Positions 1,104 to 35,123 of a stretch of 64,000 bases of DNA are shown here, piece after piece. This DNA is from Lineus longissimus. Its lineage: Eukaryota. The notes under the pieces are model-generated. The model did not search any database, was not told where the DNA came from, and saw only the letters and a list, made by a program, of their open reading frames with translations. The number at the start of each line of letters is the position of its first letter. The first letter of the stretch is position 1. The stretch is taken from positions 22,769,923-22,833,922 of the forward strand of contig NC_088309.1 of assembly GCF_910592395.1 (NCBI RefSeq), in the 5' to 3' direction. Made by a program: the position numbers and the translations under genes.

Positions 1104-4100
1104 TGATTGATAAATTGACTTGAAAAACTAACTTCAGGAAGTGTATGTATTCCAACTGAATGGATCTCACAGCTGATCACCTGGAAGTGTTCAAATTTAG
1201 ACTGACTGCTTTTTAATGGCCCTTGATCACTTAAAGTCTGGATATAAACGGGCAAGATGCAATAATCAGATTTGTGAAGAAAAGTTCATTAAAACCGTAG
1301 TCGAAACTCCATTCAGATTTGAGAGGATTTTGTATGGACTGAAAGAATGAGACACTGACAGTTAAGGATTAGTGTCTCGTGATAATGCCAGGTCATCAGT
1401 AATGCAGTTTACACAGTTTCTGTACTGAGCCAGGGTACAAATGTTCCCGAAGTAGAAACTTTTTGTGCACATTTTCATATGTGTACCTGGCACGTTTGTG
1501 TTGCACAAACTGCAAAGGAAGTCTGTGAACTTTGTTAGTGCTGGCGAGGCATTATCTTGAGACATTCTTCCTCCTTCAGGCCCATTGATATGGCCTTTGT
1601 TTTGATTCTTGCTCTGTGTGGTCCCAAATTAGTCTTTCATAATCATTGCCTTTGCATTTATACCATACTGTACATTAATTTATTCATAATTTATGTCCTT
1701 CTGTGTATTTGTCCCAAGGTGAAGTAACTTTCATGCAAGTAAACTAGTATGAGGAATGAATGTCATATGCAGCTTCAATACCTTTATCACGGCATGTTGA
1801 TGACAAACAATCATATGCTGCTAGTAATCTCTCAATCTAAAGTACCATGTTATGTTTATTCCTTTTCACCATCTCAATACGTCTTTGAAATAAAGTTCAA
1901 ATTGTCCAACCTCTTGTTTTTTGTTGCGTCTTGTTCCACCGGCATTCTGTGATCAATGTTTGAGTGTTCAGGGCTGATGTATTGCCTGACCAATGAACAG
2001 CTCACCAGACCGACTGGACTTATCACAGTTTCTACGACATCAAGTAACTAGGAATGATAATACATTGGACAGGATGGTGGTCCATAGCAAGTTAACTTTG
2101 CAGTTTGCAGGCATGCCTGGTACCCATTTATACATGTACAGCACATGTACTGCAAGGGAGAAGCAATGTAAGATTGAGCATCTAACTTAATGACATGTAA
2201 ATGAAACGGCAATGATCCTTGGACCCTCAGGTCCTATCTCCTGCCTATAGTCCCTCTTTAAGAGGTTGTAGCCCCATGGCAACCCAGTCCATTAAGGCAA
2301 AGACAATTATTTCTTTGGTAGAGGGCGACTAAAAGAGAATTGCATTGAGAAACAACACAGTTGTATTTTTTAATCCATTTGTTCATTTATTGCTCATAAC
2401 ACAACAACTTGGAGTCAGCTTTTAGATTGCATTCAGACTGATTAGCAGTGCTACTAACTCTACTTTTATCACACAAAGCACTAGTTTCTGCACAAACCCA
2501 TGGGGATGAAACCAGCCTGGAGATTAGACAAACCACACTTCTAGATAAAGTGCACCTACATGTAGGTTAAAAGAAGATGACAATTCCTATCTTATTACAA
2601 CTCATAATACAGTATCCATATCAAACCAGACATTTACCCAATACATAAGATGCGATAATGACACACATTAACCCTATCTAACTGGACCAACCAAAATTCT
2701 TAAGCCAACAGTATCACCTATGCGAAATGTTTTCGAAAGTTGAATAACTGTAAAACAGTCAGGAGCAGTCACGACTTTCAAGGCAATAGAATCTGCATTG
2801 CAAAGCTTCCATTTAGAAAGTTTTGATTCCAGTCTTATCAGGTTTGATAAATCAGGTCCTTGACCTTGTACAAGACTATACTTCCACATTATATAGCTTT
2901 TATATTTGATATATCAATCAACTGAGATCACTGCCTCTCAGTAAAAACATTTTTGGGACATTTGAGCAATCACTAGTGCAATTGAAAGACTAATCGGTGT
3001 AATATTTGATAATTCACATGCACTTATTCCTTTTGGGACAGCCCATAATACGATAATTTTATATCACTCTTTGGACGAGGACGACTATTCTTAACTTATT
3101 GAAGGCAAACATGAAGACAAAAACAGAAAAGAATTGGAAACACAGAGTAAAGGGGGACTTTGGCCATGCTCTAGCTGCACTGAGAGCATCATCTAATGTG
3201 GCACTGCAGTGACGGAGTGAACCACAGGAGCAGAACATCATTGCAAAGTGGTTACCATTAACCACTGACTTAACATTAGACATTATAGTCATACACCTCC
3301 TACCACTGCACTGATTTTATGCATACATGAGTATACACCAAATTATTTGTTATGGGTGTTTTATTTCATACCCCGGGAACAGAAGAAATAAAGCTGATGA
3401 AATCAAACAAGTGAGTATTCAAATTATCATGGTTCATGCATCAGTATGACTTCATACATTCACATTCGAGAAAGATATATAAAATGGAATGTACTACCAC
3501 TATTACTACCACCCTATGTTCCTTACAAAATGAAAGTAAATGTACATGCAATATACCACAGAACATAGCTCAAAAAACATATTAAGGACACATGCCTCAT
3601 AGAATCTATTCTTGTACATAAATTAAAACATACTATACTAAATACAGACAAGGGAAAAATACTGGATAGCCCATCTGGACTTGGTGAAAGAGCCAACAAT
3701 TTCGGGTGAATTTGACACAATTTGATTTTTTACCCATTCATCTATTCATCTGCGCAAATAGGATTGGGGGGGGGGGGGTTCGCACTTGGTGAGTAAGGCT
3801 CATTCCCTTTAACCCTCAGAACCCCGAAAACAAAGATATGCTTGAGAAAAAATACAGGGAGAACAGGGAGCTCATACTATTTTGTCACCGTTAATAGTTC
3901 AAGATAAATCATCTACATGGTTTGAAATTATCAGCTTTTAAGATACTAAGATACAAAGATGGGAGTGCTATAAATATGTACCACACATGTACAACCTGTA
4001 TGAATTCGTAGAAAATTCCATATGCCAAAAATGCAACTTACATGTAAACATGTATGCAATGCAACTGAAGTTGCATGGGGGGGGGGGGGGGGAGGGGGGG

Positions 4101-5220: not shown

Positions 5221-8200
5221 CTGTAAAGACAACACATGTGAAGATTAGAGCAGAAATCCCAGCAATAAACGATTTAAAAGAAACCTTGACCATCAAAGAG
5301 GCACATGAGGCAATACAAGTGGGGGTGTTCTACTTAACACCTTCAGCGCCGAACCACGTAGATCTACGTGGCCCAAATCCCCCTCCCCTTTGAGCTAGTT
5401 ATCGGAATCTCATGGACATCATGAAAGAACTACGCCATCGCCATCTTCAGGGCAAGGTAGGAACTGAAAAGACACAGTTCCTACCTTGCCCTGAAGATGG
5501 CAATGGCGTAGTTCTTTCATGGAGTCATTTAAAGTTCTTAACTACGCCATCGCCATCTTTAGGGCACGGTGAGAACTGAAAAGACCGTTTGATCTCTTCA
5601 GTTCCTACCTTACCCTGAAGATGGCGATGGCGTATTTTCTTTCATGAAGTCCATGAGACTCCGATAACCAGCTCAAAGAGGGGGGGTTTGGGCCACGTAG
5701 ATATACGTGGTTTGGCGCTGAAGGTGTTAAACAGGTGCTGCGGCGAGAAATCAAGAATCGACATTTCAACCATCAAATCAACCGAAACAAAATAGGCTGG
5801 CACTGCACCATGTGAGATCAAAGGCAAGAGCCCATTATCAAGGACTGCTCATCCTCAGCAACACAAAAGACTTGTTAGGTTCTGCAAAACAGCCCTCCAA
5901 TGAACCATCACTGAGGAGGAAACAGGATCAAAGAGGTACCATGATTCTGCCTACCTGAGGTGGACAAAGACGATTCCATTGATGACATTGAGAGTCTCAA
6001 GAACGTTGACTAGAGATGGGGTCTGAATCTGGAGTGGGGGCAGACCGACTGCTTTCTCGCCTTTATAAATCTCATTCATTTTCTTTTGCAGCACCACAGC
6101 TTGTTTCGTTAAATGCTTGAGACATTCACAACTTTCCTTGGTCCTTTCATGATCATCCCCAAGCTGTAAGAAAGAAAGCGGCTTTATATCAAATATGTTG
6201 TGAGGAAAAGAATTGACAAATGCAGATTTGTGAATCTCTTTGTCATAGCAAGGGCTGGTTCAAGACTAGGTGTTGCCTGGCCTAGCCTAGGACAGAACAA
6301 GACCACTTTTCAAGGCAGGTGGTGCTTTGGGCAAGAGATTCCTGATCCTTACTCAACAGGCTTGCAAGCATTGCAGCCCACCCCCAGCTGGAGTAATGAG
6401 CATACATCACACCTGTTCGAATTTACAAGAAGAACAATCAAAAGATTTGTGTGGCGATGATTGTATCATGCCTTTGTGTGGGTGATGACACATGGTCATA
6501 TGCTATTGTGAAAATTACACTCATTTTGAGATCGAGAAAACTTGGATGCTGCCCTGCAGTGGAGTAGAAGCGAACACTCACCAAATCTTTGTACACATGG
6601 TATGCCTCTTTCTCGTTACTGAGAGCAGTCCTGAAGTCACCACGACATGACTGAACACGCGCGACGAGATGATGACCCATTGCAACTTTCAAACTGTTGG
6701 CGCCAAAGAACCTGAAGAGTGAAAAAAGCTGTTGTAGCAACATATATGCCCAATGATTGAAATTGAAAAAGATTTCAAGAGTCATTTCAGAGCTGTGTAT
6801 AACAGTTATTAGCCCAACTATTTCGCTGTAGTTGGTGTAATACACTGGAAAGAAAAGTCACCTCAGTAAAACTGATCTAACCTCAACAGCAGAGTTAGTT
6901 ACAAGGCATGTTGTCAACATGGGTAGCCAGCTGATTGTGGTCTAGGATAAACACACCAAGAACTAGGCCACCCTGCTACTTACAATGTATTCAGTTGTAA
7001 CGCCTTCTCCAAGAACTTGAGTGACACATCGTACGCTCCAACTGCATGAAGGATCAGCCCGATGTTGCTCTGAAATGCATATGGAGAGATTGGTCGAGGG
7101 AAGAAGGGTGGAAAAATTTCATAAAGACATCTCAAACACAGCTGCAACATTCTTCTATAGCGGACTGCAGCTCAACTTACACAACTATCTGAAGATGATT
7201 ATAATCCACACAGAAATATCGAAACTTGAATCTGCCGTCCGCGTTTCATCATCACCTCAGTAAGACTAATCAAACCTCCACTACTTGTGTCAGATTTATG
7301 AGGCAAGTTGTCATCATTGGTGTTCAGACGAATGTATAAAGATTGGAGAGGAGATATCAGCTTTACTGCTCCGGTACTCACATCAATAAGAGCCACCTCC
7401 GGGTGGTTTTCTCCACTGCACAAGAGAGCCAGGTAGCGAGCTCTGTAGAGTAACCTGAGGGCGCTGCTGATCTGGGTGCTGGCAAAACAGTACAGGGCAA
7501 GGTGAGCCTGAAGAAAAGATTAAACAGATAAACATTCTGCTAAAAGATACGTCTCTCATATACATTGATCTAATATTTATGGCCCGCTTGGGAAACGTGA
7601 CTCTGGGCATAATCAATATGCATGCTTCAAGCCTTTAAAGCCTTAAAACCAAAGATGACACTGTTTATCAAACTTACGTATTCTGTGATGGTGCTAGGAT
7701 GATCAATGCCAAGGACTCGTTCACTGATCAAGACTGCTCTCTGCTGGTACGCAAGGGCCTAAAGGAGAAAATATCATGGTATGTACTACTGGATCAGAAT
7801 TGAATAATGTGTACAAACTGACTGAAATTCCAACACTTCAAAAGCAATACTGATATGTGCACACCGTTCACAACATGTACATGAAATTTCAAGAACCAGG
7901 TTCTCTAGGTAGGATAGAGTCCTTGAGAACGTGAAGGGAGTGTAGTCTTTGATACAAACGAAGCATTAACCTTCACTCTCAACTCACCTCTTGATGCTCT
8001 CCCATAATGTAGTTCAGTCTGGCAAGGAGTTTATTACAGGCAGCTATTTCTGGATGGATCGGTCCGTAGACGTTGTTGAGCAAATTGAGTGCTTCACTGA
8101 TTAACTCATGGCCATCTCGCAAGAAACCTTGCTGAATCTTGGTCTGTCCACTCGTAAAGAAATGGTAGGCATCAGATGCCTGCAAATAGAGATGGAAAGA

Positions 8201-11200
8201 AGTTTTTTATTTATCATCTGATGCAAGTAATCTAGACATGACACTGTTGATGGTAGTTTATCGCCAAAGATAATTCACACGTTCCTGTATTTTTATTCAT
8301 ATACATCGAAGTAGATAGTTATTTCTTTTCCATTTCTTCCAGGTTACCTCAGTAAGACTAATCAAGCCTTCACGATAGAGTCAGGAAAAGAGCAAGTGGT
8401 CATCATTGGTAACCTTGTGAAAAAGTGCTATAACCCAATGGGTGATATGAATAGCATATATAGTACTTAAAACTTCATGTACATTTACACCATGCCTTTC
8501 ACTACACAACTGAAGAAGAAGCATTTCGTAATCATCATATCACCCAATGTTTTATTGCCAGTGTCAGGAGAAGCATTCCAGTTTGTAATATTACCTTTGG
8601 ATGTACGTGTTTGACAATCGGGAACATGTTCACGATATCATCTTCGGAGAATGCAGGTTTGTTCTTGCTGTCAAGGTTGTAATCCCGGAATAAGATTTGT
8701 AAGCCCATTTTCTGGCAGAATGAGCGCAGCAGACATGCTTTTTGGATGTTGTACTTCTCAACGAGTGTGTCAACCGAGTCACTAGGAAAAGAATGACTTA
8801 TAAACTGAATAGGCAAGACAAATGAAAAAGATTCATCTTAAATATTTATGACGATTGATTTCATAATTGGGTCTCCTCAGTAAGACTAATCAAACCTCCA
8901 CGACATGAGTCAGATTTATGAGGCAAGTTGTCATCATTGGCAACCCAATTCTGAGTCAAGAAATGACAAGATTTAAAAGAAAAGTTTGAAAATCTCCCCT
9001 TACCATTCCAAGTTGTACAGGAAAAATTTGGAAGTTTCTTCTGAGATTTTCTTCCATAATGTCTTGGGTGTTTCAGAGGCCCATTCAGTATTATCAGGAC
9101 TAGTCAACCAGCGCCATTTATGGTTCTTCTTCTTGTTCTTCTTTTTAGATCGAATCTGATACAGAAAACACACGGTTAGTCAGCGAGGCATAACAAGAGA
9201 CAGCACAAATTACAGCCAGACTACGTAGCACAAGAGCAGCCATACAGAGAGTTCGCCTGTACAATTCACAGCTCTACTGGTAGCCATTTGAGTGTTTGAT
9301 AACAACACAGCTGCAGCAAGCAAACATGTGTTGAGACAAACGTCTATAATGCTATTTGCCTGCAGCTGCTGCCAGAAGTGTAAATTCTAATGAAAAGTCT
9401 CACGGTCACCACAATCAAATGAACTTTTTGAAAGATCTGAGCAAATTTGAAAGATCACTGCCATACTTACTTCTTCAGGACTGGCTTGTACATGAAGTGA
9501 CGGACAAGAGCCTAGGAAGCAGTTGAGGAAGTGGCTAACAGCATTGGCAAGACTTATCATCTCAACGCCTTGCATGTACGTGTTGAAAATGTGTTTAGCT
9601 GTCCGTGTCACAAGTTCACTCACGGCTATACTCTGAAAGAAAATATACCTTGATAGTAAAACCTTCACGTCCGAGTCAGATACAGAGCAAGTTGTCATCA
9701 TTGGTAACCATAACCCTCTCAATAGAAATCTATTCTTAACAAGCAACATATACAAATGGAAGACTTACATGCAGGTAAACCAGCTGCGTGTGTTCCTCCA
9801 GCAGCGTTGTAAACTTTCCAAGGTATCTGAGGTTGATGCCCCGCTGATGTAAAGCTTCTGTGAGTGTGACGCCATCAATGGGGGCAACCTGATGCTCCAA
9901 ACATTCCTTCACTAGTTGGGGAATTTGACTCAGAAGCAGGAATTCCGCAGCATCCTTTGTAAGCTGTTTATCTTTTTCAATCTGAAGGGAAAAATGTGTT
10001 ACTTTAAATCTGATTTTAGATTGAATTTCCGGGTTAAGTGGGGCAAATTACTAGGCCAGAGGCCACAAGTTGCATAATAAAGGAATCGCCCAACCCAAAG
10101 GTCACATTCACCCAACACCAGTTCTAGTAGGACACGTTTTGGTACTTCTTACCAGCCCTTACTGATGTTATCAGAATGATGCCCTTACAACACACATACA
10201 ATCCGTCTCAGAAAACTGTCTAATAGATGGATTATCTTCTCACTTATCTACTCATCAACTTACATCTTGACCAGCATGTTTGACATGGGGTTGGAATACA
10301 TCTGGGTTGAATGTCAAGTCAAATGCACTCTCTGTCAATGATCCCACAGCTTTAGCAGCCGCCCGTACAATCTCCTTACTACTATCTTCAACTGAAAAGA
10401 GAAAAAGAAACTACATTCACAAACACACAAAACACTTCCTTTGCATTGATCAATTGAAGGAGTCCAACTGCAATGCCAGCTTGGAAGAATTGTTCTTCCT
10501 GTGTGTTCACCTCAAGTCAATCAACTATACTGTCACACTTACAAGACTGACTATCGGCACCAATTATCTCTTCGACCAATTTCTTGGCTTCCTCGACTTC
10601 AACACTTTCATCCTCGCCCTCTTTGACAGCTTCTGGGCTCTGAAATCAGAAATACTCTGACAGTGAACAACAAAGGTATATTTCAGTTCAACTTCCTCTT
10701 AAGACCAGATACTGATGGGAAACTGTAGCAAGTTCTACAATCGAACCCCAGTCATCGGGTGAAAACCCTTCTGGTGTTAGCGAATACATGCATTAATGTA
10801 GCACAAATTCTACACCCAGTGACTTGCTGATGGAGACAATGGGCTCTAGTTCGTGCAAAAATGCAATTCTACATGTTTATAATGTAAATGAAAGTAACTG
10901 TAGCAAGTTCTACTATCAAACCCCAGTCATTGGACAATACAGTCCTTCTGGTGTTAGCGAATACTTGCATCAATGTAGCACAAATTCTACACCCAGTGTC
11001 TTATAGATGGAGACAATGGGCTCTAGTTCGTGCAAAAATACAATTTTACATGTTTCTCCATAAAACAAGTGAAAATGAAGCAACTGTAGCAAGTTCTACT
11101 ATCAAACCCCAGTCATTGGACAATACAGCCCTTCTGGTGTTAGCGAATACTTGCATTAATGTAGCACAAATTCTACACCCAGTGTCTTATAGATTGAGAC

Positions 11201-14200
11201 AATGGGCTCTAGTTCGTGCAGAAAATTCTATTTTACATGCTCATCAATAAAACAAGTGAAATTAAGGAATCATAGCAAGTTTTACTATCAAAGCTCAGTC
11301 ATTGGACAAAACTGCCCTTCTGATGATAGCGAATACTTGCTTTAATGTAGCAAGAACCTGTACCTAAACCAGTGTCAAGAACCTGTACCTCAGAAATGTC
11401 ACAAGTTCTACTTTGAAACCCCAGTCATTGTGGGAAGAAACCCTTACTGGTGTCAGTGAGGACTTGTTTTATTGTAGCACAAAATCCACACCCATTGCCT
11501 TGTAAAATAGACAGTGGGCTTGGTACATTGCGCAAAATATTTATTACATCCGGTAATGATAGAAAGCTTTTTGTATCGTCATCAACATCAGATAACTCAG
11601 GCAACAATGTCGCCTCCGGTGCAAGGAAAAACATTTCCAGTAGTTGTTTCTGTACAAACATGTTTGATAGCTCTGGGATGGGGTGTTCTACAGGTACCTA
11701 AAAAATGTCACAAGTTCTATTATCAGACCCCAGTCATTGTGGGAAGATACCCTTCTGGTGTCAGTGAGGACTTGTTTCGATGTAGCACAAAATCCACACC
11801 CACTGCCTTGTTAAACAGACAGTGGGCTTGGTACATTGCGCAAATGAATGATATGTCTCGTTAAAAAAGATTGGAAAAAACCCTGGAATCCTGTATCGTC
11901 AAAAACCGTCAACTCACATTTTCCTTATCTTCAATTTCCTTTTTCTTGTCAGCTTCCTTCTTCAGTCTCATCTGTTGGAACTGCCAGGCTGCATTCTTGA
12001 TGAAGGCCATGTACCTGGTCCTGAAGTAAAGAAACATAATATCTCAGTAATTGGACAAGCTTTAAAAATATTTACGTGAAACTAGATCAGCTATAAGCCG
12101 GCAAACTTACAACATCAGCGACTGAACAACAGCCGTTATGTCCTTGAGCTCATTATCCTGTAGATAATCTCTCCAAACATCACCCCTGTTCCTCTCCCCC
12201 ACACTCTTCAAGGCATAACATCCACTTCATCTGAGTAGACACTGGAACAATCAACCCATCATTTCGTCCAATACTATTTGGAAATGCATCACCTTTGTTA
12301 CACTTTTTCGACTAACTAAACAGATAGGCCTTTGGTGAAATAAAGTCAAGCAGACATGGGTTTACATGTACGTACTCCACAAATGCCTCAATCAGTTCCT
12401 GTCTGAGGGAGACCAATCGGTGCCTGTGAGCCACTGGGAAGCCTTCCTTCATAACAGCTTTGCTCAGCTCTTCTCCCTCCACTGGAACAACGGATACAGA
12501 AGAGAGACATTAGAGATTGCAAGATCTGAGTGACTGACACAGAAGAGGACATTTATTACAAAACTTAACAATCCAAGAACTGCAGCAAGTTCTACTCTAG
12601 TCACTGGGTGGAAAGCCATACGTAATAAAGCCCTAATTCTACACCCAATGTCGTGTTGATGACAACAATGGGCTGCAGTTGTGCAGAAAATGTTATTTCA
12701 CATGTTTTTCTGAGGAGTTATGTAGCAAGTTCTACTATCAAACTCCAGTCATTGGACAATACAGCCCTTCTGGTGTTAGCGAATACTTGCATCAATGTAG
12801 CACAAATTCTACACCCAGTGTCTTATAGATGGAGACAATGGGCTCTAGTTCGTGCGGAAGTGTAATTCTACATGTTTATAATGTAAATGAAAGTAACTGT
12901 AGCAAGTCCTACAGTCAAACCCCAGTCATTGGACAATACAGCCCTTCTGGTGTTAGCGAATACTTGCATTAATATAGCACAAATTGTACACCAAGTGTCT
13001 TGTGGATGGAGACAATAGGCAGTAGTTTGTGCAGAAAATAGAAATCTATCTATTCTCTCTTTCAAGATAACCAACCACTCATTAAAAGACTGAAATGATA
13101 CTGTTTTACTTACTTGGTAAGAAATTGACATCCGGAGGAAACGTCCGTAGCAGATCAAGGACATAGTGTCTGTTGTCATTACCAACGATACCCTTGCACT
13201 CTACCGAGGACAGCAACTCAACTTCTTCACCCTTCTCATTCAGAACTTTGTGTGGCCTGATTTTGAGATGGGCAGCAGTTTTCTTTAACTGGAAGAAATC
13301 ATAAGGAGTAAAGATTAGATTCAAAAGGATGATACATCAAAAGCGACAGTCGTATGATAAAATCAGTTAAGACATCTGCTCAATCAAACTTACCAATTCT
13401 GCATACTTTTCACTTGTCACTACAGTTTTCCCGAAGTCAATTGATCCATACACAACAGACTGCTCTTGCTCACGCTCCAGAATACCTGAAAATGAGGGAC
13501 AGTTCAGAAAGACATGATAGTAGTCAGCGTTTTACAAACCATCCAAAACGTCTGCATTATCAAAAAAACTTTACACTGTTGAAAGGTATCCAGTCTAGTG
13601 AACGGACAGCCAAGGTATTGAACAAGTTATCCCTCACATAATCTGACATTGGACAAAACTATAACATAGACTGTGTAACAAGACCAGAAAGTTTACCTGG
13701 TATAATGGACTGGGCAGTCACTCGATAACCCCTGTAGTCCACCACAACAGTTCCAAGTGTGAAAAGACCTTCAGCATCAACACTTGCATAAGCTTTCACA
13801 CCTTGCAGATCAGTACCCTACATGAAATCAAGACGGAGAACATTTTGTAAGAAGTGGGAATAAAACTCAGACTAAGCTTTCAGTTGAGTGATAGGACTGG
13901 ATTCGAAACGATGTTGGCGCCTCAGAATTTACCTAAGTTGTCTTCCTTCAGAGCACTGCTTTAAAAGATGGAGGTAGATTGAAACACCACTGCTTTTCAT
14001 TTCAGTAGTAACAATGAGCGTTTAAAACAACCCAGAAACTTAATCAGTGGATTTAGGCCTCATATATGGCTAAAGAAGTACAATGACTTGGGTGTCAGAA
14101 GATGCAAATACACAATACATGAATCAATAGGAATGTACATTAGTCGACTTACAGGGGCAGCATAAGCAGCACTGTCGCCACCAAAGTCCTTGTAGTGATC

Positions 14201-21713: not shown

Positions 21714-22776
21714 GTAAGTAGTTATTTACCCTTAACCCTTTAAGTGCCTCATGTCTTTGAGCCTTCACTTGGAAGAGATCAAAATTACACTTGACTTGCC
21801 TCATAGGGCATGTTAGGCTAATTGATTTGTGTTTCGCCCTCACCAACATCCCTTGTGCAGTGTTTGATTGATTATGTTTTGAAACTCTTCTGCTATAAGG
21901 CCAATTCAAGAGCTCTCATAATATTGATCAGTGTTTTCCAAAATGTGTGGTGTGCTTAGCTGATCAACTGGAGGTATATGTTTCGGATGTTCTGGCAGTT
22001 TTGAATACTATCACTATTAGGCCTTACATGTATTGTATCATGATGCTGCCTGATCACAGCAATCGTTGAATTGTTATTTCGATATGTCGAATAGGTGGTT
22101 ATACATTTATGATTGCTATGAAAGTATACAAATCTGTGACCTTATAACATAGAGCATGGTTCAGCAGTAATGGCAGATATGGATGTTCAAAGCTTTATTG
22201 ACCCATACACTACATGTCAAGCAATTGTGTTGCATCATGTCACAACTGACCTCTGTACTGTGGCATACTTTCTGCCTGACTTGAGACTTGATACATGACT
22301 GTATACATGTCATCCTTTCCACTAATACACTCACAAGACTGTCCAGGAAATAAACAGAGAATTGTTCTGAAGGGAAAAAAGACGAATATGAAAGGACAAA
22401 TTTTCCGGGAGATGATTAGTCCTCAGGATAAATGGTCTCACAGTTAATAGTCCCAGGGGGATAGGGCAAATTATTCTCTGGCGTTTTTAAGCACAACATT
22501 AAAGTCGCTAATGGTACAAATTTACTGTTTTGTTTCCATGTACATGTACTGTCGTTTGTAGGTTCCCATCCACCTAATTGAACTGAACCACTCCATTCTT
22601 GGTCAGCTGAGCGTCATGATTCTTAGGCCTCTTGTTGCTATACACTGTAGTTTGTTTCAGAGTACTGAATGGGGATGCTGCAACAGCCATTGGACTTAGG
22701 TCGTATATAATGACTTCAACTTGCATTCACCTTAAGTTCGTAATCATCTCATAAACGATATCATTTGTCTTTGCAG

Positions 22777-23345
22777 TGGCTGAAGCTGGCGCTGGGTTCG
22801 ATTCAAAGGGCTTTGGCCTGAAAGCTCAAAAGAAGTTACTTAGCAAGATGTCGACCAGAAAGATTCTGAAAGCTTTCATTGATGACACAACAAGTAGGGT
22901 CTTGGACAATCTGTATCGCATCGCAAAGGACTACAAAGGGAAAAAAGAAGCTGAAAAAATCATGAAAAACATCATTAAAATTGTTGTCAAAATCGGAATA
23001 CTCTATCGCAATGACCAGTTTGATACGCATGAGCTAACCATCGCTGAACAATTCAAACGAAAGTTTCGTTCCTTGGTGCTGACGATCATTAGTTTCCATG
23101 AAGTAGATTTCACTTTTGACAGAAATTATCTCTCCGGACTTATCAACGAGTGCAGCGAGATGTTGCACAAATTGATTGCACGCCATTTGACGGCAAAGTC
23201 ACAGGGACGTGTGGATAATGTGTTCTCATTTTTCTCGGAGGCAAATTTCTTAGAGGTAATGTTCTCACCTGATGGCAAATACAAAGACACACTGAAAGTT
23301 ATCGTCAAAGATCTGGAAAAAATGATGGATGATGGCATCTTATGA
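22777..23345 (+). CDS. TNFAIP8: TNFAIP8-like (TIPE family) main coding exon, with stop at 23343-23345.
   Basis: The 189-aa frame carries the TIPE-family signatures ...KKLLSKMSTRKILKAFIDDTTSRVLDNLYRIAKDYKGKKEAEKIMKNIIKIVVKIGILYRNDQFDTHELTIAEQFKRKFRSLVLTIISFHEVDFTFDRNYLSGLINECSEMLHKLIARHLTAKSQGRVDNVFSFF...KVIVKDLEKMMDDGIL. An acceptor ttgtctttgcag lies at 22771-22776. There is no in-frame ATG at the exon start. Confidence 0.85.
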
Positions 23346-26300: not shown

Positions 26301-28420
26301 TTAATGGGATAATTAGAGTATTTGATTCTTAAGACGGTGTTATGATTAGCTGTATATTTGATTGTCATAACAGTTTTACCAAGGTTCAAGTAGCGGCACA
26401 CTCATGTGAAACTTGATATTGCCTGTCATAATTATTTGGGAAAGAGTGTCCCAAGACACTGCACAGGCCGTCACTAATGAAGATTACCTTAACCTCCATT
26501 GACCAATTATCTTTGGGGATGAACTGTCCTTGGAGACATAATGCTCAATGGTGGGAGTTTTCTGTTGATGAACCAAGACATTATTCATATTGTCAGGAGA
26601 TGAACGGTTGACTCGCGGATGAGCACCTCACACCAGATCTGCATGGTCAGCCTACCACACAAAGTGTAGATTTTGCAAGCAAATACAAAATTTTCCATGA
26701 AATAGATCTAACTTTGTGCAATGCACACATGGCCAACAAATAACCCTGTAATGACCCAAGTATCAATATCGGGTTAATTCTGTATCTGAAGTTGAGCAAA
26801 CCTAACAATGTGATTACCCATGTGTATGAATCATTTAGATTGCAGAGCTGCAATAAATTTTGTTGATTAGATCCCAGTGTGGCTGAAGTTGACACTCCAA
26901 TAGATGTAATGGACGACTGGCTTCACCAGGGGCTGCTTCAGTACAACTTAGCAAGTGCCGCAAAAAAATATCTCGCACCTTCTGGCGATGTTCTGGCTGC
27001 CAGGTTGGTGTTAACACAACTTATGTTTGAGAATGATCAACATGCACCAACAAAGTGACCGCACTATCAAAATGGCATGGGGTCTACCTGATAAAACAAA
27101 TGATCTAACACTAAAATCAAGAGTTAATGCGATAAGTAATTTATTTAGTTTGTCTACATCACAAAACACAATTGCACAATAAATCTACAGCCAGAATTGA
27201 TCAGAAAACCAAACAAAGAAATAGTTCAAGTCGTTCCGAGCTAGCTCACCAATAGTCGGCTATACAACTCACTCAAATCTAGGATAAGAGAATCTGAGTA
27301 AACTGCTACAAAAATAGAAAGATACAAGATGAATATTTTGCATGAAAGCAATTGGAGCTAAGTTTGGCAAGAATTATCACATGCAAAAGCATGTCATATA
27401 TTTTGCGGCACGAGGAGTGACTGTTTTGGTCAAATGGTGGAACCAATCACAAGCAACGTGACCGAGTTGCATTTCCTGACTTCAGTCCACCATAAGACCA
27501 TGAATGTCACCGACAGAATACATCAAAACCATTGGTAAGGGATGAAAACATGTCGTTAATCCTTTCTCAAAGGTTCATGCAAATCAGCACATGTATGCAA
27601 TAAGTAATCTACAGTACATGTATTTATATCACAGTTCTATGAAAATGAGATGAAGTAACAGGACCAATTAATCAGCAGCAATAATACGTGCACTTCCCAA
27701 AAAAGGATATTTCACCACCAGGATGGACTTCACAAATATCATTCTCAACACAGTCCTCCTCATCAAATTTGCTAATTCTTTTGAGAAAAAGTTATACCGG
27801 GCATTTGGAGAAGGCAGCATGAACAAACCTACACCCTGGATACCTGAAGATGAAAACTACTTTTTTTCTAATTCTGATCACAACCCCACGCAAAACAATC
27901 AAATTCATGATGAATATGACGAGTTCCGATTAATTTTACACAATTTATAGATCCATTAAAAGATATCTAAATCATGCCAGTACACAACTAATGCTAAGCT
28001 ATATCCAGAACACATGACACGATGTTCCGGTGGTACAAATGTACTTTTTATCGTAAGTACTTCCTCACATCTACTACATACGACTTCTTGGTTATTTGTT
28101 GTAGCTGCCCGTTATAATTCACTCAGACATCAATGCCCAAAAAGCCCGGTTAAGTTCCACTAATGATTTCTACAAGCACATAATAATATGGTGTCTAAGA
28201 CATACAGTATATGAATACAACCTGTCAGTACCATGAGGTTAAAAGGAAGTAAAGATGATTTCAGACAGAAACATATTTTTTCTAATTTTAATGCAATCAA
28301 CCTCAGTGTTTAATAACACAAATGTAAAATTTTCAAACACATTTCTAATTTTGAAATATACCGCCGTTCATGTACACCATATTATATGAACAATTGCTGT
28401 ATTCAGACTCTAACGATTTA

Positions 28421-28567
28421 ATCCTCATAATCGCTCTCCCGGCGGCGTGGCGGATTAGCAGGCATCATACTACCAATCAGACCATTGGCCGTGTTGAAGA
28501 GGTTGATCGGGCTGCTTCCATCGGTGATCAGCGTTGACTTCAGGCCGAGAGACTGCAGGAGTTTAAC
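28421..28567 (-). CDS. MVP: MVP last coding exon ([49 protein letters not shown]), stop TAA at 28418-28420.
   Basis: Acceptor tctcctag. The exon is 49 codons. Confidence 0.8.
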
Positions 28568-31500
28568 CTAGGAGAAGCAAGAAGCTTATGCAGTTTTCAT
28601 CAAAACATTATAAATAAATATGCTTTCTGCCCTCCGAGATGATTTCTGCCAACATTACATATTATTTAAAATCAACAAATACCCAAGTTTACTGGAGCCC
28701 CACAAGTCCTTTGAAACTACAGGCGTGTGGGATTTTAGCATTCAGAGCTACAATTGCCAACAAAATTTTCCGATCACACTTACCTGCATTTCTGGGCCAG
28801 CATTTGCAATAGACTTGATGGTGTCTGCACCAATTGCATTGACGGTATTCTTGAACTTGTCCGACTCAATGCCCGCCATTTCACTGGCCTTGCTGATCTC
28901 GAGCTCATTCTGCTCACGAATGTATTTGTTCTCAGCTTCACGAGCCTTGGTCAGACGCTCAAGCTCGGATTCCTAGAAAGAGGAGGCATGTAATGAGTTT
29001 AAATGTTAACCAAAGGGGGGGGGGGGAACAAGAGTCCTTGAAGCAAATTTACACTATATCAGAGAGATAGGGTGACTGTTTCTATCACATAAGGAATTGG
29101 TGCGACAATTAATCCAAACCACACTCACATTACAAGGGATGGGAGATGATACAAATATGGTGTGAATATCCCAGATTACAATGGGTGTCCTCCTCAAAGG
29201 CCATCCCCCTTCACAAGTTGAGCACAACTTGTCCATTCACTCAATCTATTTTCGGTTAGGCCCACAAGTGGGGCCACCATCAGGGAATCATAGGAACTAA
29301 AATCCTACCGCCCAAGCATTATAACACAATGTATACTTACAGCTTCAATCTTTGAAGCCTGAGATTTGAGTCTCGCCTGCTCAACAGCAGCCTCGCCTTC
29401 AATCCTGTTAGCCTCAGCACGAGACTGGGCCTCGGCCTTGGCCTGACCAGTCGATTCAACAGCGGCACTGTTGGCCTGGAGTTCCAGCAGCTCCTTCCTG
29501 GCGCGCTCAGCCTCTGCTTCGTCACTAATCTTCTGCCTCTCAAGACGTCCGCGGGCCTCTTGCTCAATACGCTCGGCTTCATGCCTAAATATAAATTAGG
29601 TAAGGTTATAGACAAACAATGACAAAAGGGCAACAAAGCTTTTGGTATGAAATGAAATTTGTTGAAGTGATTTTTAATATCAAAGTTTCTAAGTATTCAA
29701 GCCAATGAACAACTACACAAGCCTGGATTTTGATATTTGACCCTGTGGTCTTATGTCAATCTCTACATCTCACTGAGTGTGGAAAACTGAAGAGAAACAC
29801 ACCTTGCAGCAGCCTCCTGCGAGTTGGTGGTAATCTCAATAGCAAGCTGGACAGACTTCTGCAGGGCATCCCTGGTCCTCTGGTCAACAGGTTCAACAGA
29901 CTGGATATCAATACTGGTTATCACCAAGTTATTCTGGGGGAAGATAAAGCGATCTCGGACCTTGCTCTTGTCATCAAAGCCAAACACAGATGAGCGAATA
30001 ATTCTTGCAGAGTTCTGAAAAGTAAAGACAATGTTATATTGACAATTTCCTAGGTCCGAGTAAAGGACAGACATTTTCATTGTCATGTTATAAATCTACA
30101 GTGCTGTCATGCAAATTGAGCATCATTTAATCTCCAACTTTGTCATGCAAAGTGTGCGAAATGATGTGACAATGTTGAGATTTTACAAAAATATATCTTG
30201 GGTAAAAACTTGGCCAAAAACAGATTTGAATGGGCAATGGATGGCAGTCCCAGCCTCAGCATTCTACATGTTCATCCAGAAACCAACTGTGTTACCGAGC
30301 TAAAGTGTGTGTTACTATTGAAAGTGAACCCTGATGGAGGCAAGTAAAGCAAGGTATACTGTAATGGATCAAGGGAGCATTTCACAAAGGTAAAGATGGC
30401 ACTGACCGGAGCAGAAAGTTGTCAGGAAGGGTGAGTTTGTGCAGTGATGCTGGCTTTTGAGCCGACAAATTTATTTTTCTCTGGTGCAGAGAAGTGAAGC
30501 AAGCCTCTGCTCACTTGAATGGCTTATAAGCTTTCATTCAATAGATTCACACTATCTACTCCCTGCTGCCCGCATCTGGCGTTTGAATCACCACACTAAA
30601 AACATCCAAACCAATTTCAAGGTCTACTCCCAAAAGGAGTAAATATGATTTCTGGGTTCATGTTTTCAAGTATTTGAACAAACTTCTGGCTGTGACATGA
30701 CATGTTATGAACTCAACACAAATGGTGAGGTTAGGATGTGAAAATGGTAATGTTCCGCTTAGGGCTGAAGGTTCACCAAGTTTTTACAACTTTGAAAACT
30801 ACTGCACTCATGAAACATGAAGGCAGCTTATTCAAAGCTGTCGAGTTTGAAGGTTTTAAGAAACAATAAGGTGTTAGGTGGATATCACTCAATGGACACT
30901 GCCTTCCTGAGGAAGATGGTGGTTGATGCAGGCTATCTCAAAAGGATGTCACAAGAAAATACCTTATGGAAATCATCAAAAGTCACACTGGCTACAGCTC
31001 CACGAACTCTGGAGGCAATAGCTTTGCATGAATCACCAACAAAGTCTGGAACACTGAATATTTTGGCTGCGATCTCCACAGAATCCTTCTTTGGAACATC
31101 AAAATGCCTAGAAATAAATGTTGTTATAACATCACAATCAATAGGCTGAATATCTACAGACCCCCTTGGACTGGTGAGAGAATCGTGTGGAACACTGAGA
31201 AGTTCACATTTCGCAAATCATCCCAAGTTTTCAGTTGATTACAAGGATGCATTCAATAAAATTTATATCCAAGGAGCAGTGTGTATTTATAAATGCCGGG
31301 CTGGTACCAAAAGTACACACAGACTCAACAAGTGTCAAATGATTACAACCAAAAACTTCAAGTTGGCCTCAGTGAAAGAAGTAGAAAAAGAAAAATTTGT
31401 GGCAAAATGGAGACTTCAAAGTATTTCAGACGATTTCTCAGAACAACTCTCTACAATCTGCAAGAAGAAAATGTCAGATTAAAAGCTGGACACAACGGCC

Positions 31501-34500
31501 TACCTTGTGGAAATCATCAAAAGGAACACTTGCAACTGATCCTCTAACACGAGATGCTATGGCTTTGCAGGAATCACCAATAAAATCAGGTACGGAGAAT
31601 AATTTAGGCCCTACGTTTGCATCAGTTTTGTCTGCAACTTCCAAATGCCTAAAATTGATGCAAAGGTTAAAAATGTTTATAAGTGACTAACAAGAGAACT
31701 TGTATTCTGAATGCCAATTGGAAGAGTACGGTACTCTAAACTCTTTACATGAAAACAACCAATCAGTTGTTTGGCCATACATGTACATGTTGGAAAATTA
31801 ACCATCGGCACATACAACACATCACAATTTGGAAAGGGCACAAACTTATCAGCTCTTCAACCCAACACTTGGGAATGCACTTTCAGTAAAAAATAATCAA
31901 AAGGCGCCCGGCTGTAAATTATTTTGTTTACCCAACTACAAATTTAACAATTGTCTGTACCTACCAGTTATATGACAACTGCAGTGACAGCCTTGCGTGA
32001 TCAGCTGTCTCAACCACAATGATATCAGTGCAGAAGTCAGGGCCTAGCAGCAGGCACAGGGACTTGATCTGGTTAGGCTTCTTGGGCTTTCCACCAGACA
32101 GACTCAGCTGAGTAAATTGCTCGTCAGGACCTAGCATCACAAGTTCTGGGCCAAACACAACTCTGAAAGAGAGCCAGATTTATACTTAATATCACTATGT
32201 AATGACTATGTCTATGCATTTGCCACATCTTTTTTCAGTATTGCATGATACAGGCAAACTACCAAAAGCATTCATTGTACAACCTGCAGACAAAAAAAGC
32301 GACAGGAGAAAACTGCCTTTATTCTGCATTCTTCTCATTTAAATTAGGTCAAAAGTTTCTATCCATGGTAGAAATTAGAACTAAAGAATTGATTCTTCTG
32401 AAATTAGTGGACTGCTGCACCAACAACATAAATCCCACGAAATTTGAACTGGACTCTAATGACTAACCTGGCTTTTTTGTCAGTATAATCATAAATCTGA
32501 ACAGCGGCGTTATGGGGCACTCGGAACGTGACGACTTTCGTCTTGTCGCGGGCCTTGCCAGGGGGACCTGAGGCAGACCTATCACTCCTGTCCGCCAAAG
32601 GGTCTTTGCCCTGGGCAAGGAGGGCATCGACTGCTGGAGGCAGATCCTTGACCCACAATTCCTCATCTTGGTTGAGCATGTATGTTTCACCGGTGACAGC
32701 CCTGACCTGCATGACAATTTCGACATATTTAAGTGTAAGGAAGACAATGTTGATATCTAACCTTTCTGCACAGTTTACTGGAGGTCATTTTATAAGTAAT
32801 TTCCAGGAAACAAAGAGATGGATTTAACTTTTCGCATTCGTGAATTCACATTGACAGTATAAAGTGCATCAAAAGTATACCCAGTGTGATACACAGCTCT
32901 TGACACAATAAAGCACAAGTGCTGCTTTCATTTGAGCCGTTAACTGACTGCTGATGCCTACCTTACCAGTCTTTACATCCCTGACATATATACCCTCATT
33001 CTTATCCAAAGGCATAGCCTGGCGTCTGGTTACCACTTCAACTTCAACTGGAGGTACATATTCAGCCGGTCCACGAATCATCCACCTATCTCCTGGCTTG
33101 CGCTCTTTGTCAATGGCAACATCCTTGAAGCATTCAGTCGCACGAAGGATGAGTCCTTCATCCTCGCCAAGAATGTAAACATTCTGGATTCCACGCTCTA
33201 GTTTCTCTCCAGGCATAAGGAAAAAACTCTTCTCGCCTTTAACAAGCTTTTTCTGTCCGAGCTGTGGTTTGCCTGTGGCATCGACAGGATCCATGATAAC
33301 ACAGTACTGCCTGTTGTTAAGTGTAGTAATGTCAACGACTCCTACAACTTCCTCATAGACGGCCGGAATATGTGTTTCTGTGTCTGTCATTTTGATCAAC
33401 CACTCCTCACCGTTCTTTCGCACCTTTCCGAAGTCATCCTTGAATGTCCTGATAGAACGCATATGGAGTGCTTTCTGTAACAGAAGATGTGAAAGTATGG
33501 CTAAGTTAATGATAGAACACTTATGAATGCAAAACAACCAAGGGATTATTCTGAGTACAAAACTTCTCTGTCAGGACATGCATTCATGTTCCTGTTCGAC
33601 GACTGACAAATTTCTCATTGACAAACTTGACACATACCTTTTCTGTCAGAACGTAAGCGTTGACGATATCAACAACCTCCTCATAAGCACCAGGAAGGTA
33701 GGCGCCAGTCTTCTTCACAAGCCATTCCTCTCCTGTCACGCGGTTGGTGCCCTCACGATCGACACACTCTTTACGAGCGCGCAGCTTGATGGCCTGGTTG
33801 GGCTTGATAATCGTGGCACGGGCTGTTTCTTCCACAACGACTTCCTTCCTCGGGATGTAAGTGCCTGCCAAAGGAAGATGGGAAACAAACTCATAATACT
33901 TTAACTATTGGACAACGCCTCTACAATTTTCAGGATTTTTAAAGCCTCAGCTGAACTACATAATTGACATCGAATCACAGACTCTGCATTGGTTTTGAAA
34001 CATCCGGTATACAGGATGTAAAGATTCATCCGAAAATACCTCCGGTGATTACTTGGTCTTTATATAACATTTGGCATTATTTGGAACAACAACAAGAAGT
34101 GTTGCATACCTGGTCCCTCGAATAGCCACTCATCTCCAGCAACTCGTTTATCTCCACTGGCATCCTCGAAGTCAAGAAGAGCGCGTAGACGAATGGCAGC
34201 ATTAGCGATTACAACTTTCAGTGGAGTAACAGCCTATAAGGAAAGGATTTTGTAACAGGGACGTCCAAGAACAGTACGCTCGTTTTTTAGCTGGGTTGAG
34301 TTTGTAAACCTTTCAAGCCACTTTTGAATTGCCTAAGCAGCTCACACAAAAGCTCAAAACATCCTCTGGTGATACCTCTTTACTACCTTGGACATAGGGC
34401 ACGGGTGTTGAGGTCAAGCTAACGACCAACTTGACTTGAACAACTAAGCCAAGGTATGATACCAACCTGTTTGAGAACCTCCCCAGGGAATAGAGGGAAA

Positions 34501-35123
34501 GGATCCTGGGCCAGTCTGATATCCTGATCAGCATGGAGAAGTTTAGCCTGTCCGACTTTGTCGAAGACAACCTCACCATCACCATCTCTTAGGACAGGAT
34601 TCTCGATTATGCAGTAGTGCCTTGGGGGCACTGTGATCATCTTATCCGGCCCATACACAACCCTAGAAAAGAAACAAGCATACAGTTAAAGATCACATCA
34701 AAATTAGAAGGAAAAGACCAATAAAACACCTCAAAATTCTTGGCACTAAAAGTGGTATCATCAGAGCATGCACTTTAGGATGAAAACTAGGGTGCCCTCA
34801 CAGCCAAAAGACCCAAGTCAAATGACAAATATATGCATCGTCATGAACTTCTTCTTCAATACTAAAGACGAAGTCACTCCAACTGCTCCCCAATTGTAGT
34901 AATACGCTACAAACTATCAGAAGAAAGGAGGAAAAGCAGAAGAACTTGATGATGCAATGTTGATCATAAGGCACTTCCTTTACCTTTCATTGTCCTGTCT
35001 GATGAAAGTCTGTGGTCCAATTTCCAATCGTGTGACATTGCTGTTCTGGTCAAGGACATGGAGGTAGTAATAGGGAGGGATTCGGACGATAGAATCGTCA
35101 GTTGCACTCCGTCTGGTCGCCAT
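28421..35123 (-). CDS. MVP: Major vault protein (MVP) gene: CDS span of about 13 coding exons, start codon at 35123-35121 and stop at 28418-28420.
   Basis: The minus-strand exons match MVP from the N-terminus to the C-terminus. Examples are [47 protein letters not shown]..., the vault repeats, [34 protein letters not shown]... and ...[45 protein letters not shown].... The C-terminal coiled coil is present, and the protein ends ...[55 protein letters not shown]. Confidence 0.93.
28784..28972 (-). CDS. MVP: MVP exon 11 ([63 protein letters not shown]).
   Basis: Acceptor tttctag and donor gtaagtgtg. The 189 nt equal 63 codons. Confidence 0.8.
29341..29584 (-). CDS. MVP: MVP exon 10 (coiled-coil cap: [82 protein letters not shown]).
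   Basis: Acceptor tatttag and donor gtaagtata. The 244 nt equal 1 + 81 codons. Confidence 0.8.
29803..30014 (-). CDS. MVP: MVP exon 9 ([70 protein letters not shown] + AG).
   Basis: Acceptor ttttcag and donor gtgtgt. Anchored to the minus ORF 29763-30086. Confidence 0.8.
30963..31107 (-). CDS. MVP: MVP exon 8b, the second tandem alternative 145-nt exon ([49 protein letters not shown]).
   Basis: Acceptor tttctag and donor gtattttc. It is about 70% identical to exon 8a at the protein level. Including both exons would shift the frame. Confidence 0.7.
31504..31648 (-). CDS. MVP: MVP exon 8a, the first of two tandem alternative 145-nt exons ([49 protein letters not shown]).
   Basis: Acceptor ttttag and donor gtaggcc. 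Its length and phase are the same as exon 8b. Confidence 0.7.
31965..32162 (-). CDS. MVP: MVP exon 7 ([66 protein letters not shown] + TG).
   Basis: Acceptor ctttcag and donor gtaggtacag. Anchored to the minus ORF 31961-32158. Confidence 0.8.
32468..32706 (-). CDS. MVP: MVP exon 6 ([79 protein letters not shown] + AG).
   Basis: Acceptor atgcag and donor gttagtc. Anchored to the minus ORF 32404-32712. Confidence 0.8.
32962..33474 (-). CDS. MVP: MVP exon 5 ([171 protein letters not shown]).
   Basis: Acceptor tgttacag and donor gtaggcatc. The exon is 171 codons, anchored to the minus ORF 32869-33537. Confidence 0.8.
33638..33864 (-). CDS. MVP: MVP exon 4 ([76 protein letters not shown]).
   Basis: Acceptor ttggcag and donor gtatgtgtc. 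Anchored to the minus ORF 33584-33871. Confidence 0.8.
34110..34233 (-). CDS. MVP: MVP exon 3 ([41 protein letters not shown] + G).
   Basis: Acceptor cttatag and donor gtatgcaac. The 124 nt equal 41 codons + 1. Confidence 0.8.
34467..34662 (-). CDS. MVP: MVP exon 2 ([66 protein letters not shown]).
   Basis: Acceptor ttttctag and donor gttggtatc. Anchored to the minus ORF 34419-34658. Confidence 0.8.
34984..35123 (-). CDS. MVP: MVP exon 1 ([46 protein letters not shown] + AG).
   Basis: The minus-strand ATG reads cat on the plus strand at 35121-35123. Donor gtaaagg. The 140 nt equal 46 codons + 2. Confidence 0.8.

Follow-up and report, generated by a model that had tools for sequence, protein, structure and literature searches.

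The window analysed here is a 64,000-nt stretch of the genome of the nemertean Lineus longissimus (genome note PMC8593623; RefSeq assembly GCF_910592395.1, contig NC_088309.1, positions 22,769,923 to 22,833,922), whose minus strand carries a gene for the major vault protein (MVP) in which one coding exon, exon 8, occurs in two tandem and putatively mutually exclusive copies, designated 8a and 8b. Stop-free stretches on this strand, from approximately 35.1 to 28.4 kb, spell out a complete MVP, and the protein drafted from them is 100% identical to the 858-aa database entry for the L. longissimus major vault protein-like isoform X1, whose 90% cluster also includes an isoform X2, likewise of 858 aa. 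RefSeq holds X1 as XP_064619697/8 (two transcript entries) and X2 as XP_064619699. The Lineus protein exceeds the cut-offs of the Pfam families PF01505, PF17794, PF17795, PF17796, and PF11978. Among the MVP chains of the PDB, the best match in the region tested has an E value of 1.7e-76, with rat entries at approximately 1e-75, and across phyla, MVP shows about 80% identity to the Lineus protein. The assignment of the gene to MVP, made in an earlier note from the DNA letters alone, is thus confirmed by the RefSeq identity, the Pfam domains, and the PDB matches.

The gene comprises 13 coding exon positions, 12 of which are used per transcript to give the 858-aa product. Applied to the window, an exon-chaining script yielded exact copies of X1 and X2, each made up of 12 coding exons separated by GT-AG introns, and the two chains differ only in the choice of exon 8 (Table 1). 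At the protein level, the isoforms differ at 15 positions, all of them within aa 548-588, the peptide of 8a being found in X1 and that of 8b in X2. Alternative use of 8a and 8b is already part of public annotation, and the two MVP isoforms anticipated in the earlier note are those that RefSeq lists as X1 (8a) and X2 (8b); transcripts with one or the other exon would accordingly exist, at the level of these annotated models only. Full-text literature searches on MVP in combination with mutually exclusive exons or exon duplication found no description of such an MVP exon.

The two copies are adjacent, similar exons on the same strand of one gene, with a common length and phase, splice sites of their own, and a reading frame that is kept by each, a constellation that is expected of a mutually exclusive exon (MXE) pair. 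Exon 8a is flanked by caattttag on its acceptor side and gtaggccg on its donor side, and exon 8b by atttatttctag and gtattttc, respectively. Both enter in phase 2 in the exon-chain model, their first base completing a Trp codon begun in exon 7. The coordinates, sequences, and splice sites that the earlier note had assigned to the pair are all correct on the minus strand, as are the length of 145 nt and the common entry phase. The copies start 541 nt apart and are identical at 101 of 145 nt and 33 of 48 aa. When either exon peptide was compared by tblastn with the whole window, the other copy was recovered with an E value of 1.6e-20 and nothing else fell below E = 1, so that the likeness between 8a and 8b lies far beyond chance. 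No other duplicated MVP exon was found in the window. The introns flanking 8a and 8b retain no residual similarity beyond the last ~15 nt upstream of the acceptors, which fits an old duplication in which the selected exons alone have stayed similar.

Table 1. Features of the MVP-like locus in the window (position 1 is the first nucleotide of the 64,000-nt stretch; a slash marks an exon boundary)
Feature	Positions	Strand	Length	Basis or remarks
MVP-like coding region	28418..35123	-		100% identity to XP_064619697/8 and XP_064619699; GT-AG exon chain; Pfam domains
Constitutive coding exon 7	31965..32162	-	198 nt	Exon-chain model; ends in LSLQLSYN plus TG of a Trp codon; donor ACTG/gtaggtac
Intron 7 (exon 7 to 8a)	31649..31964	-	316 nt	Exon-chain model
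Alternative exon 8a	31504..31648	-	145 nt (3n+1)	Exon of RefSeq isoform X1
Intron 8a-8b	31108..31503	-	396 nt	Exon-chain model; GT...AG, U2-type, spliceable length
Alternative exon 8b	30963..31107	-	145 nt (3n+1)	Exon of RefSeq isoform X2
Intron 8b to exon 9	30015..30962	-	948 nt	Exon-chain model
Constitutive coding exon 9	29803..30014	-	212 nt	Exon-chain model
Candidate pairing arm (low confidence), 17-34 nt upstream of the 8b acceptor	31124..31141	-		Inverted repeat, 16/18, AU-rich
Candidate partner arm, 62-79 nt upstream of the exon 9 acceptor	30076..30093	-		Complementary to 31124-31141

Inclusion of 8a alone or 8b alone yields a coding sequence of 2577 nt, with an open reading frame (ORF) of 858 aa and a common stop codon. 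When 8a and 8b are included together, translation reads ...FDDFHKAF and terminates three codons into 8b; when both are skipped, it reads ...LSYN and terminates where exon 7 meets exon 9. These premature stops precede the last exon junction by 781 and 644 nt, respectively. The earlier note's frame argument, in which exactly one exon keeps the frame and double inclusion or double skipping leads to an early stop, therefore holds in full. Exclusivity enforced by the frame and nonsense-mediated decay of mRNA (NMD) is recognized by an exon length that is not a multiple of three (non-3n) together with premature stops located upstream of the last exon junction by more than approximately 50 nt, and the 8a/8b pair displays both, with 145 = 3n+1 and stops 781 and 644 nt upstream. 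Double-inclusion and double-skipping forms of this kind are classic NMD substrates. In Caenorhabditis elegans, 14 of the 19 non-3n mutually exclusive clusters proved NMD-dependent in the clearance of such forms (PMC4165533).

The divergence between the copies, assessed with Nei-Gojobori counts, indicates that neither has been released from constraint. The proportion of synonymous differences (pS) is 0.65, corresponding to a dS of about 1.5 and effectively saturated, while that of nonsynonymous differences (pN) is 0.21, giving a dN/dS of 0.16; this ratio falls to 0.055 in codons 16-48 and reaches 0.71 in codons 1-15. Even at this saturated synonymous divergence, neither ORF is interrupted and each of the four splice sites is preserved. 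Because pS is saturated while dN/dS is low, the duplication is old and both copies have long been under purifying selection, with the first third of the exon free, or driven, to diverge. The two copies do not depart equally from other MVPs. Against the Pfam MVP_shoulder profile, the protein scores 179 bits when it contains 8b and 171 bits when it contains 8a, and 8a carries residues that are atypical among 35 homologues, including L548 (F in 33 of 35), S583 (A in all 35), G559 (A in 27), and P560 (A in 26), as well as P588, which is likewise atypical for MVP. By these comparisons, 8a is the more derived copy, and 8b lies nearer to the consensus of MVP.

The 48 residues encoded by exon 8, aa 547-594, belong to the shoulder domain, which spans aa 520-638 (Pfam PF11978), and map to residues about 546-593 of rat and human MVP in solved vault structures. 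The shoulder is a single alpha/beta domain that follows the nine repeat domains and precedes the cap-helix (PMC7916137); the segment had previously been placed upstream of the cap-helix, a position that is correct and can now be sharpened to the interior of the shoulder domain. An AlphaFold model of full-length X1, poor as a whole with a mean pLDDT (predicted local distance difference test score) of 56 but reasonable across the shoulder with block means of 53-83, was used for the secondary structure of the shoulder only. In this model, residue 548 is predicted to lie at the end of a beta-strand, followed by a loop (549-558), a short helix (559-563), a long helix (567-585), and a further helix (589-594). 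Of the 15 residues that distinguish the isoforms, 12 lie in 548-562, and the predicted long helix differs at 569 and 583 only. Variation between species likewise peaks in the interval 548-562, where column entropies reach 3.3 bits.

The segment is single-copy in the other invertebrate MVP loci examined. In the palaeonemertean Tubulanus polymorphus, whose whole 6.9-kb gene was analysed, there is one copy with identical 145-nt boundaries (cag/G...AAG/gtaaat), and the MVP loci of Lingula, Mytilus, and Littorina likewise contain one copy of exon 8 each; the conservation among related species that the earlier note had proposed to check is accordingly not borne out in these four. Across the 120 best MVP homologues, the segment is present once in all, and among 79 metagenome and metatranscriptome loci with the exon, neither a same-strand tandem duplicate nor an 8a-type sequence was found. 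The duplication appears confined to one nemertean lineage. Its age may be gauged from a metatranscriptome mRNA (L002) that encodes an MVP 92% identical to that of Lineus and carries a 50-aa exon related to 8b, with which it has the motif ...SVEL... in common. Over 782 codons, synonymous divergence between Lineus and this relative is saturated as well (pS 0.62), at a level comparable with the 8a/8b pair, so the duplication is probably roughly as old as the split between the two species or older. All comparisons used for synonymous dating are saturated, with pS values of 0.58-0.85 on 23-33 sites, and support an old date only.

Several further observations concern the same exon in other organisms. 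Between Lineus and the L002 relative (positions 1702-1851), pN in exon 8 is 0.145 with 8b and 0.26 with 8a, compared with 0.01 in exons 7 and 9; relative to these flanking exons, the exon 8 segment is a local hotspot of protein change in this lineage. In Littorina saxatilis (L085, CM074567.1), a single residue within the homologous exon, S or N at aa 551, distinguishes the RefSeq isoforms X4 and X5. A recent exon duplication, suspected from this difference, was rejected, as the 35-kb locus is single-copy; the GenBank gene ranges of the Littorina MVP locus are oddly split, and the cause of the X4/X5 difference is probably allelic or annotation-related. An 89-kb metagenome contig (L070) contains two diverged exon 8 homologues approximately 2.6 kb apart, at 3001-3144 on the plus strand and 5702-5845 on the minus strand, and their placement on opposite strands suggests two convergent or divergent MVP genes in one eukaryote.

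Explanations that deny the pair a biological role fare poorly against these data. Haplotypic or assembly duplicates are expected to be nearly identical, flanks included. The Lineus copies are only 70% identical in nucleotides, their 44 differences are mainly synonymous, and their flanks are wholly unrelated, so that an artefact of assembly, whether a haplotype that was collapsed or expanded or a spurious tandem duplicate, is so improbable that it can practically be set aside; nothing specific speaks for it beyond the general caution that attaches to a single assembly. It is also quite improbable that one copy alone is truly used, the other being a decaying or rare pseudo-exon and the second RefSeq isoform noise or a homology-driven model. 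Such a reading could draw on the atypical residues of 8a at conserved MVP positions, on its lowered Pfam shoulder score, and on the fact that no 8a-like exon occurs in any other sequence examined. However, at a pS of 0.65 the frame of each copy is still open, its length is exact, and its phase, acceptor, and donor are kept, with the low dN/dS noted above in the conserved two thirds of the exon. An unused copy would not be held in this state, and the long purifying selection on both copies, with which the intact ORFs and splice sites agree, argues against a pseudo-exon as well as an assembly artefact. Moreover, it is the 8a form that RefSeq names isoform X1 and lists with two transcript entries.

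A different set of alternatives concerns how exclusivity is achieved. Steric hindrance, which applies where the intervening intron is shorter than about 50-60 nt, so that its 5' splice site and branch point cannot both be used, is ruled out by the 396 nt that separate 8a from 8b. Incompatibility between U2- and U12-type splice sites, for which one flanking intron should be AT-AC or carry a GTATCCTT-like donor, is ruled out as well, since the donors gtaggtac, gtaggccg, and gtattttc and the AG acceptors with their pyrimidine-rich tracts are all U2-like. A further proposal is that competing docking-site/selector RNA structures act during splicing as the main determinant of exclusivity, with NMD serving only as a backstop. 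Such a system would require an intronic docking sequence able to pair with a selector beside each variant exon, the arrangement being conserved between species. Tandem exon duplication has been put forward as a route to such competing structures (PMC6071210), and a complementarity of 16 of 18 nt between a site upstream of the 8b acceptor and one upstream of the exon 9 acceptor would loop out 8b (Table 1). Yet this best stem is AU-rich and scores 13 compared with 11.3 +/- 1.1 for shuffled sequences, 1 of 30 shuffles equalling it; being marginally above shuffled sequence, it may be regarded as a low-confidence candidate only. Hairpins at the four splice sites, evaluated in 71-nt windows, are no more stable than those of shuffles (z from -1.0 to +1.0), whole-intron duplex energies lie inside the shuffle range, and no pair of selector-like repeats occurs upstream of both 8a and 8b. 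Exclusivity set mainly by RNA pairing seems unlikely in this gene. With steric blocking ruled out, no U12-type sites present, and RNA pairing at most marginally above chance, the frame constraint combined with NMD is the supported means of enforcing exclusivity, the NMD step itself being predicted.

Comparison with established systems places the pair among familiar forms of alternative splicing. It resembles the non-3n clusters of C. elegans, such as lev-11 7a/7b (PMC4165533), in its adjacent exons of equal 3n+1 length and one phase with approximately 70% identity, in the frame kept by each exon and the premature stops that arise otherwise, and in an intervening intron of normal length, whereas it differs in its host gene, MVP, and in that NMD dependence is a prediction in Lineus. 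With docking-site/selector systems (Dscam exon 6, 14-3-3zeta, and ATE1 7a/7b), it shares duplicated alternative exons of which exactly one is chosen. In contrast to these systems, no docking/selector complementarity clearly above chance was found in Lineus, and its pair is frame-enforced, whereas docking-site/selector systems include exons without frame enforcement. As for the protein, Lineus and vertebrate MVPs (rat and human; 4V60, 4HL8, and 7PKR) have a common domain order of Vault repeats, shoulder, and cap-helix, and the ending encoded by Lineus 8b is common to mammalian MVP. The four other invertebrate MVP loci encode the segment once, whereas Lineus has two alternative versions.

It is therefore very probable that 8a and 8b form a homologous mutually exclusive exon pair that arose through an old tandem duplication and gives rise to two MVP isoforms, with exclusivity enforced by exon length. 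Under this interpretation, coding exon 8 of MVP would have been tandemly duplicated long ago in the lineage leading to L. longissimus, and each mature mRNA would carry either 8a or 8b, yielding 858-aa isoforms that differ at 15 residues of the shoulder. Most of the differences would fall in a loop and a short helix located after a beta-strand, leaving the next, long helix nearly unchanged. Given the exon length of 3n+1, double inclusion or skipping would shift the frame and lead to an early stop, and such messages would be removed by NMD. The exon anatomy, the effects on the frame, the purifying selection acting on 8a and 8b, and the presence of X1 and X2 in RefSeq are established. Both isoforms are presumably made in vivo, NMD is expected to clear the aberrant forms, and the choice of exon may be regulated. 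Several points weigh against this interpretation. Support for the use of each exon consists of the RefSeq model pair and the signature of selection. A protein collection search with the tail of exon 7, exon 8a, and the head of exon 9 returned fragments at most 77% identical at full query coverage, none of them from Lineus and none matching either of its two forms. Among the 4 invertebrate and 79 environmental loci, no further species turned up that has 8a as well as 8b, leaving conservation of the pair unproven, and a regulated rather than stochastic choice of exon has no support so far. On present evidence, this is a standard MXE pair, one that is real, old, selected, mechanistically ordinary, lineage-restricted, and already annotated.

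The vault shell is built from 78 copies of one protein, and its function is debated. Two versions of one surface-proximal shoulder segment constitute a natural experiment on the role of that segment and raise the question of whether vaults can be heterogeneous. More tentatively, and with rather low confidence, the pair may represent a regulated switch of ancient origin, dating back at least to the split from the 92%-identical relative, and the two isoforms would then form vaults with different shoulder surfaces. If so, vaults of the two kinds could exist separately or the isoforms could mix within 78-mers, in a manner tuned to tissue or stage, splicing would accomplish what some organisms do with MVP paralogues, and a natural two-state variant of a surface loop would offer a handle on the contacts of the shoulder domain. 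The value of the exon pair as described here is that of a small, species-specific addition that introduces no new principle, the mechanism being textbook.

Elsewhere in the window, the MVP gene is adjoined by a divergently oriented bZIP gene on the plus strand (38597-39921), which comprises a bZIP exon (38597-38977) and a long C-terminal ORF (39184-39921) and by eye resembles XBP1 (RKLKNRVAAQTARDRKK...). A bZIP gene is also the immediate neighbour of MVP at the Tubulanus locus (L001, 1-1258), and this linkage looks conserved within Nemertea. Downstream of MVP, an uninterrupted 189-aa ORF on the plus strand (22776-23345) gives a full-length match to Pfam TNFAIP8 with an E value of 1.7e-73 and appears to represent an intronless TNFAIP8/TIPE-like gene. 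The window further contains a tandem repeat at 10721-11352, with a period of 186 nt, 3.5 copies, and 87% matches, as well as a segment at 52001-56000 in which a strongly negative GC skew of -0.22 to -0.29 coincides with an AT skew that is negative too, setting this segment apart from the remainder of the window.

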